In this document: piece by piece, positions 7,339-19,791 of the stretch
Layout of the letters: the number at the start of each line of letters is the position of its first letter
How positions within the stretch are numbered: position 1 is the first letter of the stretch
Origin: Candidatus Thorarchaeota archaeon
Lineage (GTDB): Archaea > Asgardarchaeota > Thorarchaeia > Thorarchaeales > Thorarchaeaceae
Direction of reading: 5' to 3'
Assembly: GCA_048884785.1 (NCBI GenBank)
Contig: JBHLQM010000019.1
Coordinates: 13,772 to 51,903, forward strand
DNA length: 38,132 nucleotides
Position numbers and translations under genes: made by a program
The notes under the pieces: generated by a model
What the model was told of the DNA's origin: nothing
What the model saw: the letters and a program-made list of their open reading frames with translations, nothing else
Databases searched by the model: none

Positions 7339-7423
7339 ACTTGGTCAATCGCGTTGATATTGATAAATCTCCCCACAAGTCGGTGCAATTATCTTGGCCA
7401 ATGTAATTCTGTCATCGAGAGCA

Positions 7424-7807
7424 ATGCGACTTGTACGCGTAATCAAGCAACATCAGGGTGAAATCTCAACACCTCTAACTATAGAGAAGAACGATATTAT
7501 TGAAGGAGAGATACGAAAAACCAATTGGGACGGATGGTTATGGTGCAGGAATGCCAATGGGGTCTTTGGGTGGGTACCTGAGCCCTACCTAAAACAGCTT
7601 CCAGAAGATGGCAAGTACATGGTCATTCAAGACTACAACGCGTTTGAATTATCTGTAGATATAGGGCAGGAGCTCTTGATTCTAGATAAAGTCAGTAGTT
7701 GGGCCTGGGTAAGAACAATTGATCATAGAGAGGGTTGGGTGCCATTGGAGAATCTTGAGGAGGTCTCCAAGTCCAGTGTATCACTCGATTTAGATACTGG
7801 CACATGA
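7424..7807 (+). CDS. Tandem SH3-domain protein
   Basis: Two SH3-like units ending GWLWC...GWVPEPYL and DYNAFELSV...WAWV...GWVPLENL. Confidence 0.85.
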   Translation: MRLVRVIKQHQGEISTPLTIEKNDIIEGEIRKTNWDGWLWCRNANGVFGWVPEPYLKQLPEDGKYMVIQDYNAFELSVDIGQELLILDKVSSWAWVRTIDHREGWVPLENLEEVSKSSVSLDLDTGT

Positions 7808-7869
7808 TATTGACATGTATCCTGTCGAATACCTTTTCTGTCACCATTTATCTTGGAAAATTGAGTACA

Positions 7870-8412
7870 ATGACACGAATTGCCATATGCTACGGATCTC
7901 GATATGGTACCACCACTGAAATAGTAAAAGGAATGGCTGAAACTGCCACAACATTAGGCGCACAAGTTGAGATTGTTGAGCTCAAAAAGAGCAAATTGTC
8001 CGCAGCAATTGAAGAATACGACATAATCATAGTTGGCAGTGGTATCCGAGTAGAGAGGTGGACAAAGGAACCACTGAAATTCATAGAGGAAAATCTCGAG
8101 AGTCTGTCAAAACAAAAAGTAGCGCTCTTTGTTGTATGCGGTGACGCAGGTAACCCATCAAGATGCGACTACGCTCAGAAGAACTATTTAGACGCAATAG
8201 TTGAACAATATCCCGGCCTCTCTCCAGTATCAACAGGTCTCTTTGCAGGGATGTTTGATCTGAAACGGTACAATTTCCCAACTAGAGCTCTAGTGAAGAG
8301 CATCATTAAGCAGAGGGCATCAGGTCTCGAGGAGATACCAGAGGTAATGGACCTAAGAGATTGGGATCATATCAACGAATGGATCACCAAGCTCATTCAA
8401 ATCCGGAATTAG
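7870..8412 (+). CDS. Flavodoxin-domain protein (HemG-like family)
   Basis: YGSRYGTT FMN phosphate loop, YDIIIVGS, C-terminal DLRDWDHINEW. Confidence 0.88.
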   Translation: MTRIAICYGSRYGTTTEIVKGMAETATTLGAQVEIVELKKSKLSAAIEEYDIIIVGSGIRVERWTKEPLKFIEENLESLSKQKVALFVVCGDAGNPSRCDYAQKNYLDAIVEQYPGLSPVSTGLFAGMFDLKRYNFPTRALVKSIIKQRASGLEEIPEVMDLRDWDHINEWITKLIQIRN

Positions 8413-8439: not shown

Positions 8440-9495
8440 ATGATAAACGAGGTTCAAATCATGCCCGATGAACTCAGAGTTGGTACTTCACTGGCAAAAC
8501 GAGGAGAGCTCCAGAAAGGAGTCATTAAAGGAATCGAGCTCAATACAACAACACCAATAGACATCCCGGTCCTTGTGATGAATGGAGCTAAGAACGGTCC
8601 CACTCTTCTTGTTGTTTCAACGCAGCATGGAATTGAAATACAAGGGGTTGAGGTAGTTCACAGAGTTCTAAGAGAGAGGGTCAATCCTAAGGAACTTCGA
8701 GGTGCAATCATTGGTATCCCGGTCGAGAACCCGTTGGCATATATGCATCATCAGTATCTCTCATGGATTGACAACCAAGATCTTGGGGGTGGTGGAAGTG
8801 GGAGTCTTCTCACTGCGGACAGACCCCATGGTACTGCAACAGAGCGTCTGGCATATGCTCTCTGGCATGAGGCTTGGAGTAAGGCGGACTTGGTCATCAA
8901 TATTCACTGCAATGTGAGACCTGACGATCTCATCTTCCAAGAGATCCTCATAGGCAATCCAAAGACAAAACCCGGCCTTGAGAAGATGGCTGCTGCCTTC
9001 GGAGTGACCACAATAGTTGACGACACACCAATCAATCCCAAGGCCCCACCAACCCTTGGAAATCTGGCTGACCAAAAAGGCGTCCCAGTTCTTCTCATGG
9101 AGTTGATTGATGGTCGCTGCATCTCTGAACCATCAACAAGTGCCGGAGTACGTGGAGTACTCAATATCATGAAAGCATTTGACATGATTGATGGAGAAAT
9201 TGAACCACAGACGGGGTTCCCAATAATTCCCGGGAAATGCAGGTTTCAAGGTATTATTCGCGCCAATAAGGGCGGGCTGATACGTTTCCTGAAGAAACCA
9301 GGTGAGTTCCTTGAGAAAGGCGAGGTATTCGCAGAAATCTATGATCTGTATGGGGATGTGCTTGAGAGAGTAAAGATGACAATTGATGGCTATATCTGGG
9401 CCTATCCGTGCGGTGACATCCTTGGCACACCGGGAAGTATGCAGACTGTCCAGACTGGCGCCAATATAGCATACACCTTCACACAGACAAAGTGA
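8440..9495 (+). CDS. Succinylglutamate desuccinylase/aspartoacylase family (M14-like metallo-deacylase); start may be 8461
   Basis: GPTLLVVSTQHGIE (HxxE), NIH, C-terminal biotinyl-like domain (KGGL...IYDLYG). Confidence 0.88.
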   Translation: MINEVQIMPDELRVGTSLAKRGELQKGVIKGIELNTTTPIDIPVLVMNGAKNGPTLLVVSTQHGIEIQGVEVVHRVLRERVNPKELRGAIIGIPVENPLAYMHHQYLSWIDNQDLGGGGSGSLLTADRPHGTATERLAYALWHEAWSKADLVINIHCNVRPDDLIFQEILIGNPKTKPGLEKMAAAFGVTTIVDDTPINPKAPPTLGNLADQKGVPVLLMELIDGRCISEPSTSAGVRGVLNIMKAFDMIDGEIEPQTGFPIIPGKCRFQGIIRANKGGLIRFLKKPGEFLEKGEVFAEIYDLYGDVLERVKMTIDGYIWAYPCGDILGTPGSMQTVQTGANIAYTFTQTK

Positions 9496-9501
9496 CAAAT
9501 A

Positions 9502-9529
9502 TCTAGTAAAACTATCCGCGAATTCCTAG
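9502..9529. repeat. Degenerate copy A of the palindromic site (TCTAGTAAAACTATCCGCGAATTCCTAG)
   Basis: 17/19 match to the core at 9750 and 11062; starts 6 bp after the deacylase stop codon. Confidence 0.65.
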
Positions 9530-9606
9530 AATGTTACGTAGTTCATAGTGCTTATAGAGCAAAATCATAACATCAATTTCAGTTCTAGATATCAAATTGA
9601 AACGGG

Positions 9607-9803
9607 GAAATGGATGGATCTCGTGGTTTGGTGTAATGCTACTCTATCAGGGCGATTATCTTCTTTGATACCCCTCCTTCTTCTCTCGGTATCATTACTC
9701 CCAATACCATCCGTTTCCACCTTTTCCTGCAGATGACCAGCCCTCAATTTCTAGTAAAACCGTCCGCGGGTTTTCCTTGCATCTGCATCATGTATGTGCA
9801 TTT
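9607..9803 (+). repeat. Imperfect ~200-bp direct repeat, copy 1 (contains site B, 9751-9779)
   Basis: Shares ACCCCTCCTTCTTCTCTCGGTATCATTA, CAATACCATCCGTTT and TTCTAGTAAAACCGTCCGCGG-N-TTTTCCTTGCATCTGCATCATGTATGT with copy 2. Confidence 0.9.
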
Positions 9804-9979
9804 TGTTGGGACTGACATCTGTCACATATCTTGTCAAATTTAGAAAAGCTTGATTCAAGTGTTGTGGAAACAATACTTCCATCCATTGTTATCAAGTTTC
9901 ATTATGACTTTGGTATTAGGCATAGTTTTTTCATCATTTGCTGAAAATAGTGATTTAGCTAATCGAATCTGAGAGTAAA

Positions 9980-10819
9980 ATGATGGTTCAGAAAGTTCAG
10001 CCATTCCGCAACTTAATAGACAATATACCGAAAAACATAGGACTCTATTCAGTGGGAGTCATGCTTCTTTTTCTGTTTCGTGTCGCAATTGACCTACTAT
10101 GGCTTCTAGTAGGTATGATTGCATTCCTACTATCTTATTCCTCGATTTATGTCCTAAATGATCTATATGATATCGAGGATGATAAGAAAGATGAAAGAAA
10201 AATCCTGAGAAAGCCCTTGGCTCAGGGGGTTGTTACTAGAAAGGACGCAATAGGTATTTTCATTCTGTTTTTAGCTCTAGGTCTTTTTTCTTCAGTATTT
10301 CTCGGTCTGCCATTCTTATCTACTATTTGCTCCTTGATTTTCATAAATCTCCTTTATTCTACTCCCTCGATACACATTAAGAATAAGAGCCTAGAAGAAA
10401 TAAGCCCAAGAAGTCTGAAATATACGCTTTTGGGACTACCCCTTGTTCTTTTCATGCAAATATTGAAGATATTTCTCCCCTGGACAATAACTACAGAGAT
10501 GACTCAATTCCCTATTCTCTTTGCCTTTGGGTTTTCAGTCATCTACATTATAATCTTCAAAGGCTACAAGGAATACTTGACTATTGGAGAATCCGTTAGG
10601 CATATGTCAGGCTCATTCAGTGCCGCCATCGCTGTTTTTGCTTTGTCAATGTTGATATATCCTGAACCGCTGGCTCAAGCAATAATCATAGGGTACATAC
10701 TTCTAGGCATCCTATTCTTCAACGATTCGTATCTCACTGATAGAAAAGTCCTACTTCTGAGTCCTGTCTATATTTTTCTAGGAATTATCTTTCTATTTCT
10801 TGCAATGGCAATAACATGA
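9980..10819 (+). CDS. UbiA family prenyltransferase
   Basis: Asp-rich YVLNDLYDIEDDKK followed by RKPLAQG, NLLYS; multi-TM. Confidence 0.85.
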   Translation: MMVQKVQPFRNLIDNIPKNIGLYSVGVMLLFLFRVAIDLLWLLVGMIAFLLSYSSIYVLNDLYDIEDDKKDERKILRKPLAQGVVTRKDAIGIFILFLALGLFSSVFLGLPFLSTICSLIFINLLYSTPSIHIKNKSLEEISPRSLKYTLLGLPLVLFMQILKIFLPWTITTEMTQFPILFAFGFSVIYIIIFKGYKEYLTIGESVRHMSGSFSAAIAVFALSMLIYPEPLAQAIIIGYILLGILFFNDSYLTDRKVLLLSPVYIFLGIIFLFLAMAIT

Positions 10820-10920
10820 TAACTCACTAAGTTGTTAGCGACGTTCAGTGGGCGCATCTCTACAAGAAATCTATCAGTAAACAGCCTATAGAGCATCCGC
10901 TTCATACACATAGAATCAGA

Positions 10921-11115
10921 GAAGTGGACAGGTTTCGTGATTTGGCGAGTGTTACTCTATTAGGACGATTTCTTCTTCGACACCCCTCCTTCTTCTCTCG
11001 GTATCATTATCCTCAATACCATCCGTTTTCACCCTCCCTCATAGGTGGCTATTCTGGAAGTTCTAGTAAAACCGTCCGCGGATTTTCCTTGCATCTGCAT
11101 CATGTATGTACATTT
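10921..11115 (+). repeat. Imperfect ~200-bp direct repeat, copy 2 (contains site C, 11063-11091)
   Basis: Aligned by eye to 9607-9803. Confidence 0.9.
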
Positions 11116-11201
11116 CTATACATACCCAATCAGAGCCAACAGAGAATTGCCCTTGTATTATCATATTTATTATGAGGATAGACTCTGTTTCTGATTGCTC
11201 A

Positions 11202-12131
11202 ATGATTGAACCAGTCATGCACCCATTCAAGTTTGCGACGGACTTGGACTCTGTACGTGCCTTTCTCTCAGAGGTCTGCAGGATCAATGGGAGTCTTCAT
11301 TATCTGATTCCAACGAAGATTGAGAATCAGAAATACGGGCCATGTGGTCCAGATTACTCACAAGCAGATGATGAAACTATAAAGATATGGAGGTCATCTA
11401 GTACACCTAATTCTGAAATCATTGCAGTATCTCATCGGGGACCAGCAGGCAACTATCATATCGAGATACATCCAAAACACAAGGAGATAGAGAAAGAGCT
11501 CTTTGCCCAGATTGAGAGCCTCGAGCGGAAGAGGACTGACAATGAGAGATCCCGCATATACATGTACACTGTGGACGTGGATCCAAAGAGAATTGCGCAC
11601 TTGACCCAGATGGGCTATGAGGACTATGGACTCCACGAATACAACTATGAATTTCCTTCCAGTGCCGCCATACCACAATATGAGCTCCCTGAGGGGATCA
11701 AGGTGCGCTCCCTCATGGGTGAGGAGGATTATCCTAAGTATATCGAAATCGTAGGTTCGGTGTTCATACACTGTAGCGAGTTCATGACCTTAGAGAGAAT
11801 GAGGTTCATGACACAAGCAGAGTTCTTCTACCACGACCTCCATCTTGTTGCGACGACACAGGAAGACGAGTTCGTTGGTTTCTGCATCTATCGGCTCGAC
11901 CCCTTGACGAAGATAGCTGAAGTGGAAGGGTTGGGCATTCACCCGGACTTCACTGGACTAGGCCTGGAAAAAGCACTGCTCTGTGAGGGAATGAGGAACC
12001 TGCGGATGAAACAACCTCTGCTTGCATGTGCTGTCGAGGTCAATGTATCAGAGGAGTTCAATGAGCAGCTCCAATCTGCTGGGTATGTTCGAAGTGCGAT
12101 AATGAATATGTGGGGAAAATCCCTTGCTTGA
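11202..12131 (+). CDS. Tandem-GNAT acetyltransferase
   Basis: N-terminal GNAT-like half and C-terminal EGLGIHPDFTGLGLEKALL motif A; start 11202 chosen downstream of an AT-rich TATA-like tract. Confidence 0.8.
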   Translation: MIEPVMHPFKFATDLDSVRAFLSEVCRINGSLHYLIPTKIENQKYGPCGPDYSQADDETIKIWRSSSTPNSEIIAVSHRGPAGNYHIEIHPKHKEIEKELFAQIESLERKRTDNERSRIYMYTVDVDPKRIAHLTQMGYEDYGLHEYNYEFPSSAAIPQYELPEGIKVRSLMGEEDYPKYIEIVGSVFIHCSEFMTLERMRFMTQAEFFYHDLHLVATTQEDEFVGFCIYRLDPLTKIAEVEGLGIHPDFTGLGLEKALLCEGMRNLRMKQPLLACAVEVNVSEEFNEQLQSAGYVRSAIMNMWGKSLA

Positions 12132-12243
12132 ACCAATGGTCAAGTAGCCTTGTCGAAAGCATTAAAAGCATCCCGAGAGGTGACAGCCAAGCAGGTCCCC
12201 TACCCAGAGGACCGACTAACTAAGAATAAGGAGAATAAATGCC

Positions 12244-13542
12244 TTGTCCAAGAAAGATAAGGAGCATCTTAACCTCGTCGTCGTCGGACACGTTGACCAC
12301 GGCAAGTCCACTATGACAGGTAGGTTGCTTTACGAAACAGGCGCTGTTGACGAGCGTACTTTCCAACAGCATAAGGCCGAAGCAGAACGACTTGGGCGGC
12401 CCAGCTGGGCATGGGCTTTTGCGCTGGACCGTCTCAAAGAAGAGCGAGAACGTGGTCTTACAATTGACATCGCCTTCTTCAAGTTCCTGACTGCTAAATA
12501 CTATTACACAATCATCGACGCGCCCGGGCATAAGGACTTCATCAAGAACATGATAACTGGTGCCTCTCAGGCAGATGTTGCATTGCTTGTCGTGTCAGCA
12601 AAGACAGGTGAGTTCGAGGCTGGTGTTGGTCCTGGTGGCCAGACAAAAGAGCATGCATACCTGTGTATGACCCTCGGTGTTCCATCAATGATAGTTGCGA
12701 TCAACAAGATGGACGATGTCAATTACAGTGAGGAGCGATACAAAGAGGTCAAGGATGAAGTCGCAGGTTTCCTGAAGAGCATCGGATACAAGACCGATGA
12801 TATTCCATTCATTCCAACCTCAGCACTATCTGCTGCTAACCTCAAGGTGAGGACTCCGGACATCACTCCATGGTACAGTGGTCCCTGTCTGCTTGAGGCT
12901 CTTGACCTGGTCTCACTCCCACCCAAGCCAATTGACAAGCCTCTTCGCGTGCCTATCAACGACGTCTACTCCATCAAGGGTGTAGGAACAGTCCCAGTTG
13001 GCCGTGTCGAAACAGGTGTCATGAAGACCGGTATGAAGATCACTTTCATGCCTCCTAACAAGCAGGGTGAAGTGAAATCAATTGAGATGCACCATGAAAT
13101 CTTGCCTGAAGCTGTTCCTGGTGACAACATCGGTTTCAATGTCCGTGGTGTAGAGAGAAAAGATCTTGGTCGTGGTGACGTTGCTGGTCCTACTGACAAT
13201 CCACCCACTGTGGTGTCAGACTTCACAGGCCAGGTCATGGTGATACAGCACCCAACCGCCATAACAGTAGGCTACACACCAGTCATCCACGCCCACACAG
13301 CTCAGGTCGCTTGCAGGTTCGATGAACTCCAGAAGAAGCTTGACCAGAGAAGCGGCCAAGTGACCCAAGAGAACCCTGACTTCGTCAAGAAGGGTGAGTC
13401 CATGGTTGCGAAGCTCGTACCATTGAAGCCAATGGTCATTGAGAAATATAAAGAACTGCCTCAACTCGGGCGATTCGCAGTACGTGACATGGGTATGACA
13501 GTCGCTGTTGGTGTGGTCCTGGATCTAACACCAAGAAAATAG
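12244..13542 (+). CDS. tuf: Translation elongation factor 1-alpha (aEF1A)
   Basis: [36 protein letters not shown]; TTG start. Confidence 0.99.
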
Positions 13543-19677: not shown

Positions 19678-19791
19678 TGGCGCTGAGGAAGGGATTCGAA
19701 CCCTTGAGTCTTACGACACTGGATCTTTGCAGGATGGCTGGAATGCCAATCTTTAGCAATCCAGCTCCCTACCAGGCTAGGATACCTCAGC
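19678..19791 (-). tRNA. tRNA-Ser(GCT) with a 29-nt intron at position 37/38 (19725-19753); CCA encoded
   Basis: Acceptor GCTGAGG/CCTCAGC, discriminator G, long variable arm, GTTCGAATC T-loop, anticodon stem CTGGA/TCCAG; bulge-helix-bulge with TTGC/GCAA central helix. Confidence 0.95.

Follow-up and report, generated by a model that had tools for sequence, protein, structure and literature searches.

We analysed a stretch of 38,132 nucleotides (the window) from a Candidatus Thorarchaeota archaeon (GenBank assembly GCA_048884785.1, contig JBHLQM010000019.1, positions 13,772 to 51,903) and show that three intergenic sites within it, designated A, B and C, represent a strand-specific gene-boundary element of about 25 nt that is particular to Thorarchaeota and for which we establish conservation, strandedness, position and gene contexts. 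Its placing suggests that the motif may be a gene-end signal read by a factor and acting in transcript 3'-end formation, termination or insulation, a reading that we favour without being confident of it. A preliminary description of the window had presented the sites as palindromes of two 11-nt arms around a 7-nt spacer and proposed them to be recombinase core sites or operators. Re-reading the sequence finds the three sites where it had located them (A at 9503-9529, B at 9751-9779, C at 11063-11091) and all on the plus strand, in agreement with the common spacer orientation that it gave, and its placing at gene boundaries is borne out for a real, non-random motif.

A DNA search of 86 genomes of the family, all genomes compared being metagenome-assembled genomes (MAGs), retrieved only about 25 nt around the motif. 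The resulting consensus, (AAYT)TCTAGTAAAA-YYR-TCCGCGRATT (class I), is asymmetric, with about 20 nearly invariant positions and three free nucleotides at its centre. By pattern scan class I is present in 46 of the 86 genomes and 7 of the 16 genera with 1-5 copies each, the reversed control pattern giving 0 matches. The class I genera include g1, g9, g11, g12 and g14, while ten species of g11 are devoid of the motif. A scan of 596 Gb of species-representative genomes yielded 43 matching stretches, about 33 of them in Thorarchaeota-type MAGs, a few labelled only as 'uncultured archaeon'; about 10 are scattered bacterial matches missing the conserved flanks and having low weight-matrix scores. 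The class I motif is confined to the Thorarchaeota family and elsewhere is not above chance. Metagenome contigs contributed 29 more loci. As the relatives are not independent of each other, these counts overstate the statistical weight, the independent evidence amounting to roughly 15 distinct gene contexts. Neither Rfam (no family reaches its gathering score anywhere in the window, and no meaningful match appears in 9400-11250 with E values allowed up to 5) nor a full-text literature search for a Thorarchaeota intergenic motif returned anything relevant.

The window's own genome (G000; 3.6 Mb, 91% complete) carries its class I copies A, B and C as follows. Copy A (9498-9526, plus strand; core TCTAG from 9502) starts 6 nt past the TGA of the 351-aa AstE/AspA-type open reading frame (ORF) at 8440-9495, in agreement with the earlier placing just behind the deacylase stop, and is orthologous to the deacylase-motif junction of relatives, this deacylase gene being the one most often preceding the motif there. 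Copy B (9746-9774, plus strand; core from 9750) is located 254 nt past the nearest upstream stop, and copy C (11058-11086, plus strand; core from 11062) has its counterpart in the HxlR-motif-GNAT junction seen in another genome of the genus. B and C differ in a single base and are the only matches in the window to the 29-nt pattern with up to 3 mismatches, shuffled sequences having an expectation of 0.00; A matches them over the first 18-23 nt. Using a weight matrix built on 70 copies from relatives, A scores 40.4 compared to 39.6 for B and 41.0 for C, so that the label 'degenerate' given to A does not hold: it is missing only the right arm of the earlier description, which is not a conserved feature.

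The palindrome itself does not survive comparison. The arms of B are complementary at 9 of 11 positions as described and those of C at 8 of 11, a palindromic look being restricted to these two copies. Across 59 non-redundant copies, right-arm positions 24-30 (the outer seven) are random, pairing between arm positions is no commoner than the make-up of the columns predicts, no covariation is seen, and there is no conserved hairpin or palindrome across copies. The 11-7-11 symmetry is a chance feature peculiar to B and C, since the right arm beyond ATT is random and the arms lack covariation, and the supposed spacer contains the invariant TCCGCG, i.e. the most conserved part of the motif. The class I core ATCCGCGGAT contains an inner palindrome of 8-10 bp, with position 20 being A in 44% of the copies.

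Context statistics were obtained for 93 non-redundant class I copies. In 81 of 89 cases the closest ORF upstream has the same orientation as the motif, the distance from its stop codon having a median of 6 nt and being 15 nt or less in 61 of 81, and the next start follows at 1-454 nt (median 66). At least eight unrelated families precede the motif: deacylase, tandem SH3, DUF2334, Zn-ribbon, EamA, HxlR, a 130-144-aa membrane protein and flavodoxin. With D for deacylase, F for flavodoxin_5, S for tandem SH3 and m for the motif, the recurrent orders are D-m-F-S-m followed by aEF1A, a beta-lactamase-like gene or others in genus g11, D-m-S-F-m in genus g12, and further D-m-S-m, S-F-HxlR-m-GNAT, EamA-m-S-HxlR, DUF2334-m and Zn-ribbon-m-MFS. 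The D-m junction is kept at the same place across five genera, and it persists between genera in which the deacylases are 73-83% and the SH3 proteins 43-50% identical. Many copies are located between convergent genes. EamA, deacylase, SH3 and flavodoxin genes are each also found with the motif and then a convergent gene, the tightest convergent case consisting of a Zn-ribbon gene, 11 nt, the motif, 3-4 nt and the stop of the converging gene. In g12, the ribosome-binding site (AGGTGA) and ATG of the SH3 gene follow the deacylase stop after no more than about 40 nt, and this short gap is taken up by the motif, placing it inside an mRNA. Where the motif of the second copy has decayed or switched class, the promoter of aEF1A downstream of it is still intact, suggesting that the motif belongs to the upstream unit.

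The class switch refers to a sister class, TCTAGTAAAATCATTCGCCT with the ending TTCGCCT followed by a T-rich tail, which is the common alternative second half of seemingly decayed copies. It was found in 58 of the 86 genomes and 11 of the 16 genera with a shorter pattern carrying background (reversed control about 19 matches vs about 75). The sister class replaces class I at orthologous positions, i.e. between SH3 and aEF1A in three g11 genomes and behind DUF2334 in g10, and is followed by a run of at least five T in 9 of 30 copies (30%) vs a background of 1.3%. It typically lies between convergent genes for a GFO/IDH/MocA oxidoreductase and a UbiE methyltransferase, and also between M24 peptidase and PP-loop ATPase genes. 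In G000 one copy is present (C66:8068-8096, locus L201), the TAG of the motif being the stop codon of the GFO/IDH/MocA oxidoreductase gene. Diverged homologues of the motif precede an operon of DUF7521 and winged helix-turn-helix (wHTH) genes even in genera without class I. In genus g11 (L208, L211, L213, L222-L224) a conserved gene for a membrane protein of about 60-68 aa (MLQT...), overlooked by the 70-aa ORF cut-off, lies between the oxidoreductase gene and the sister motif; it is encoded on the minus strand and starts about 37 nt from the motif.

We favour a gene-end signal because of the sense orientation, the link to the stop codon, the persistence between convergent genes, the intercistronic case and the absence of a hairpin. 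According to such a model the motif, located directly behind the stop codon, would be copied into the 3' untranslated region (UTR) or intercistronic RNA as a sense-strand signal and be recognized by its sequence, i.e. two conserved halves flanking three free nucleotides, and not by a hairpin. A factor dedicated to the motif would bring the preceding transcript to an end, process it or protect it, and would shield the unit that follows; the motif could be read on the transcript, whether nascent or mature, or could act as a polar roadblock on the DNA. Protein-roadblock terminators would be one working analogy, and the dodecamer that follows genes in yeast mitochondria another. The dodecamer is a 3'-end processing and stability element behind coding regions, which resembles the motif in being short, sequence-defined, unstructured, strand-specific and located right behind stops, also within polycistronic units, and which is read by a dedicated factor; this is an analogy only, the sequences being unrelated, the host here being archaeal and the motif being carried by a handful of genes only. 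Archaeal oligo-T terminators share the position behind genes, copies of the motif occur between convergent genes as well and the sister class often ends in T5-T8, but ordinary oligo-T terminators are genome-wide and need no conserved sequence of 20 nt.

Several observations weigh against a gene-end signal. We infer the existence of the factor as well as the transcript-end function, the latter from position alone. A run of at least five T follows in only 2 of the 93 class I copies, most having T2-T3, and this rarity shows that class I is not a standard archaeal oligo-T terminator. Efficient termination in the deacylase-motif-SH3 operon would silence the downstream genes, and 20 of the 93 copies are followed by a TATA-like box at a distance of precisely 27-29 nt, which would also fit a promoter-linked site. 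B and C are about 250 nt away from the nearest upstream stop. Further exceptions concern the upstream gene: none in the same orientation is present for copies in the divergent region before the DUF7521-wHTH operon or for a single site ahead of SH3, and a diverged variant adjoining mutL is antisense to both neighbours. None of three candidate readers fits by its distribution across genomes: HxlR occurs in 14 of the 86 genomes and is absent from G000, tandem SH3 is absent in the motif-bearing genus g14, and the wHTH protein of the DUF7521 operon is encoded by a core gene (74 of 86 genomes).

In its wider form the idea would be that Thorarchaeota mark the ends of selected transcription units by a sequence-specific, factor-dependent terminator, 3'-end or insulator element read by protein or RNA, working in the manner of eukaryotic or organellar systems such as roadblock terminators and the mitochondrial dodecamer, unlike the oligo-T terminators known from other archaea, and existing in two specificity classes sharing the half-site TCTAGTAAAA; we consider this generalization rather unlikely. 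To our knowledge, transcription-unit delimitation in Asgard archaea is hardly understood, as there are few cultures and few transcript maps. The motif stayed nearly invariant while neighbouring proteins fell to 45-80% identity, is strand-specific and tied to stops, and exists in two classes, which makes it usable as bait for its reader and as a query in sediment metatranscriptomes. A factor-read end signal, if true, would represent a kind of terminator or insulator undescribed in archaea; an operator or an antisense promoter would define a small lineage-specific regulon.

The preliminary description had named an operator as its alternative. As an operator or upstream activating site, the motif would be bound in double-stranded form by a sequence-specific transcription factor, some 65 nt ahead of the point where the following gene starts, and a small accessory regulon would be controlled jointly in this way. 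The low copy number per genome and the inner palindrome of the class I core agree with this, as do the surroundings of the motif: the TATA-like WWTTGTG of the leaderless flavodoxin promoter follows at a fixed 27-29 nt past the motif in 20 of 93 copies vs 0.4 expected, the TATA of the beta-lactamase-like gene follows at 22-26 nt behind three different upstream genes, the copy before the DUF7521-wHTH operon stands among other repeated boxes (GATGAWTCR), and in B and C conservation extends from the motif exactly to a TATA-like box. While the fixed TATA spacing speaks for the operator, an operator fits poorly with copies squeezed between convergent stops, of which at least nine independent contexts exist with no promoter to control, and the distance to the next start ranges over 1-454 nt, g12 leaves no room for a promoter between motif and SH3 gene, no palindrome is present in the TTCGCCT half of the sister class, aEF1A and UbiA retain promoters of their own whatever the motif, and its orientation is fixed relative to the upstream gene. 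We regard an operator as unlikely, albeit to be taken seriously. Still less probable is a purely post-transcriptional RNA target, in which an RNA-binding protein or a complementary small RNA would attach to the single-stranded motif in 5' leaders, 3' UTRs or the spacers between cistrons and tune translation or decay, with no role in ending transcripts. The sense orientation of nearly all copies, the layout of two conserved halves separated by three free nucleotides, which bipartite pairing or a modular reader would lead one to expect, the motif abutting the SH3 ribosome-binding site in g12, and the element adjoining mutL, which carries the complementary strand in the sense transcript, are all compatible with it; however, a partner RNA was not found, G000 has no mutL-type copy, pairing of the motif with 16S rRNA, tried as a candidate, was rejected as being on par with shuffled sequences, and the model has no need of the close association with stop codons. 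A promoter on the opposite strand, where the reverse complement of the motif (CCGCGGAYRR-TTTTACTAGAA, or GGCGAATGA-TTTTACTAGA) would be a pair of B-recognition element (BRE) and TATA box firing leftwards, would yield RNA antisense to the 3' end of the gene before it, or would transcribe a divergent gene at those places that have one. The reverse complement resembles local promoters, among them GTCGAAAGC-ATTTTGTG (flavodoxin) and GTCGGAATG-TTTTTAAT (a tRNA-Val), and in several contexts leftward genes do start 37-90 nt away (the gene for the membrane protein of about 60-68 aa, a CesT-like gene adjoining mutL, c19 and c65). Since the left gene converges on the motif in 81 of 89 class I copies, only antisense RNA would be made there, a matrix from 31 tRNA promoters of G000 scores both strands alike with both in the top ~1%, and the CesT-like context has better TATA boxes between motif and gene, rendering this promoter improbable.

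Least likely of the rivals, and in our estimate very improbable, is site-specific recombination, in which units ending in the motif would be captured, excised or shuffled at it as a cassette boundary. The proposed scan of relatives did return what the idea anticipated, i.e. copies elsewhere bound gene units of varying order and presence. One- or two-gene units ending in the motif are permuted among genera (D-m-F-S-m, D-m-S-F-m, D-m-S-m, S-F-HxlR-m, EamA-m-S-HxlR), one motif pair encloses either a 138-nt spacer or a reversed 115-aa gene, the m-F-S-m module has variable flanks, the window's UbiA gene is bracketed by motif-holding direct repeats, and the motif is located directly 3' of ORFs in an attC-like manner; the permuted order and the alternative 138-nt or 115-aa content are what the cassette idea predicts. 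The other parts of the recombinase option did not stand. There are no conserved inverted arms in the 59 copies, and a partner enzyme is missing: in the motif-bearing Thorarchaeota MAGs G000, G042 and G049, being 90-93% complete, no XerA/integrase-type tyrosine recombinase (PF00589) or serine recombinase (PF00239) was detected with profiles that scored in 14 of 14 and 12 of 14 control genomes, respectively, and no PF00589 gene was seen in the flanks of the 93 sites. The sole integrase of the closed genome G057 is encoded 188 kb from the motif and tblastn finds no homologue of it in G000. The suggested analogy to pdif modules fails as well, as paired copies in one locus are all direct and not inverted repeats, and mobility is countered by the copy after the deacylase being inherited at the same place across five genera. 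Arrays comprise 2-3 copies only and stand beside the housekeeping gene aEF1A, several bounded genes (flavodoxin, aEF1A, UbiA) have promoters of their own, UbiA orthologues elsewhere are motif-free within the ~1.5 kb examined on each side, and the homology between B and C covers 185 nt at 83% identity instead of a short identical core. The tempting claim of a new archaeal cassette-recombination system, being unsupported, is thereby removed.

Among known systems, the Xer site dif has two inverted 11-bp arms and a 6-bp spacer, occurs essentially once per chromosome near the terminus and needs XerA (PMC2958812). The motif is similar in length (about 28 bp), in B and C being writable as 11-7-11, in conservation between related genomes and in its intergenic location at gene boundaries, but in relatives its arms do not form inverted repeats, a genome has 1-5 direct copies instead of a single site, and no Xer-type gene was detected in the three motif-bearing genomes. 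As pdif modules need inverted site pairs, the all-direct pairs of the motif differ from these too. Integron attC sites and gene cassettes have been reported in Archaea (PMC9668308). Like attC, the motif directly follows ORFs in the same orientation and bounds unrelated small genes varying in order and presence between relatives; in contrast, it lacks IntI, attI and a folded imperfect palindrome with RYYYAAC/GTTRRRY cores, conserves sequence (near-invariant over 20 positions) where attC conserves structure, forms arrays of 2-3 copies that are stable at orthologous places across genera, and several of its bounded genes have promoters. Bacterial repetitive extragenic palindromes and bacterial interspersed mosaic elements (REP/BIME) are likewise oriented intergenic repeats behind genes or between convergent genes, with sequence classes and a location at rearrangement points, but REPs are hairpin palindromes with tens to hundreds of copies tied to REP-associated tyrosine transposases (RAYT), whereas the motif is stemless and has few copies.

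One copy in the closed genome G057 (CP070658.1, 2,579,137 bp), at 1,289,648, is located 80 nt from the exact chromosome midpoint and about midway between two Orc1/Cdc6 genes. The motifs of this genome lie at 1290-1294 kb and the Orc1/Cdc6 genes at 783 and 1833 kb, and the GC skew, as sampled, follows the local coding strand only and did not reveal where the terminus lies. A replication terminus, dif or origin found no backing as an explanation in the Orc1/Cdc6 positions or the GC skew, and the coincidence with the midpoint probably stems from the assembly having been rotated by half its length, in which case the original contig ends adjoined the motif.

Within the window, B and C are carried by a direct repeat of about 185 nt that brackets the UbiA gene (9621-9803 vs 10935-11115, both plus strand, 83% identity) and is present in two copies only in the 3.6-Mb genome. 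Unit 1 (9621-9803) consists of an upstream block of about 125 nt, motif B and about 35 nt ending in the TATA-like GCATTTTGT; comparison with unit 2 (10935-11115), which holds C, reveals a mosaic of two well-kept blocks around a diverged stretch of about 30 nt. Between them lies the gene for a UbiA-family prenyltransferase with its own upstream region of about 90-110 nt (9890-10819, ORF 9980-10819, plus strand), a lineage-specific insertion absent from the six other genomes of the genus. Its closest relatives, in g11, are 56-69% identical and encoded at a different locus, no motif being present within the ~1.5 kb examined on either side of UbiA orthologues elsewhere. About 100 nt upstream of the window's UbiA gene align with the upstream regions of the g11 UbiA genes, showing that it came with its own promoter. 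A same-genus genome has the arrangement S-F-HxlR-m-GNAT without UbiA and without the long repeat. This UbiA-free arrangement, together with the g11-like upstream region, supports a model according to which A, behind the deacylase, and C, ahead of the GNAT-like gene, are inherited copies and B would have arisen upon insertion of the promoter-bearing UbiA by duplication of the ~185-nt unit holding C. The probable route is homologous (Campbell-type) recombination through this unit, as a circle integrating within it would result in exactly the observed B-UbiA-C layout. A search of metagenome contigs for close relatives without UbiA gave no exact match to the repeat block.

Further explanations for the repeat units were considered. 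RNAalifold on both strands of the B and C units gave nothing decisive from two sequences. Coding on the minus strand with TAG as a sense codon (pyrrolysine) was rejected: a peptide is shared before the TAG, but the central triplet creates stops in relatives and in copy C a stop follows the TAG. A gene remnant in the 125-nt upstream block was also dismissed, tblastn giving only a 25-bit match that contains a stop and was judged to be chance.

Besides A, B and C, the genome G000 contains a further class I-like copy with a matrix score of 24 at C29:32207-32235 on the minus strand (L006). It sits behind a TATAAAGG box, 17-21 nt from a convergent ABC ATPase gene, and after another 3.6 kb the contig carries a 16S rRNA gene. 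The DUF7521-wHTH operon comes directly after the C29-type copy in other genera and is 7 kb away in the genus of G000. Before the DUF7521 membrane protein gene and the 97-aa winged-helix gene, the motif is flanked by three GATGAWTCR boxes, two of them 21 nt apart (L036, L043, L046, L175-L182). These boxes are probably the auto-operator of the wHTH gene, which is core to the family, and their 21-nt spacing explains a putative micro-ORF ending 4 nt before the DUF7521-type copies, which was rejected on this basis. The C66-equivalent site of the sister class is located in g11 and g12 at 3-10 kb from the UbiA orthologue and adjoins the UbiE methyltransferase gene.

Upstream of the deacylase gene the window encodes a tandem-SH3 protein (7394-7807) and a flavodoxin_5 (7804-8412; together 7394-8412, plus strand), the orthologues of which are motif-flanked in other genera. 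Downstream of C follows a GNAT-like ORF (11106-12131, plus strand), whose real start is probably 11203 or 11219 as compared with G017. The aEF1A gene (12153-13542, plus strand, coding region 12244-13542) has its own BRE/TATA GTCGAAAGCATTAAAAG and a conserved leader of about 60 nt, and no motif is present directly upstream of it, unlike in genus g11. The leader (within 12153-12243) reads GGTGA.AGCCAAGCAGGT...GACCGACTAAC for about 60 nt after the BRE/TATA, is nearly identical in g11 and might give the elongation-factor mRNA a structured 5' leader. Further downstream, positions 19681-19791 hold a tRNA gene (Rfam tRNA match, 47 bits), which from its length of 111 nt presumably contains an intron.

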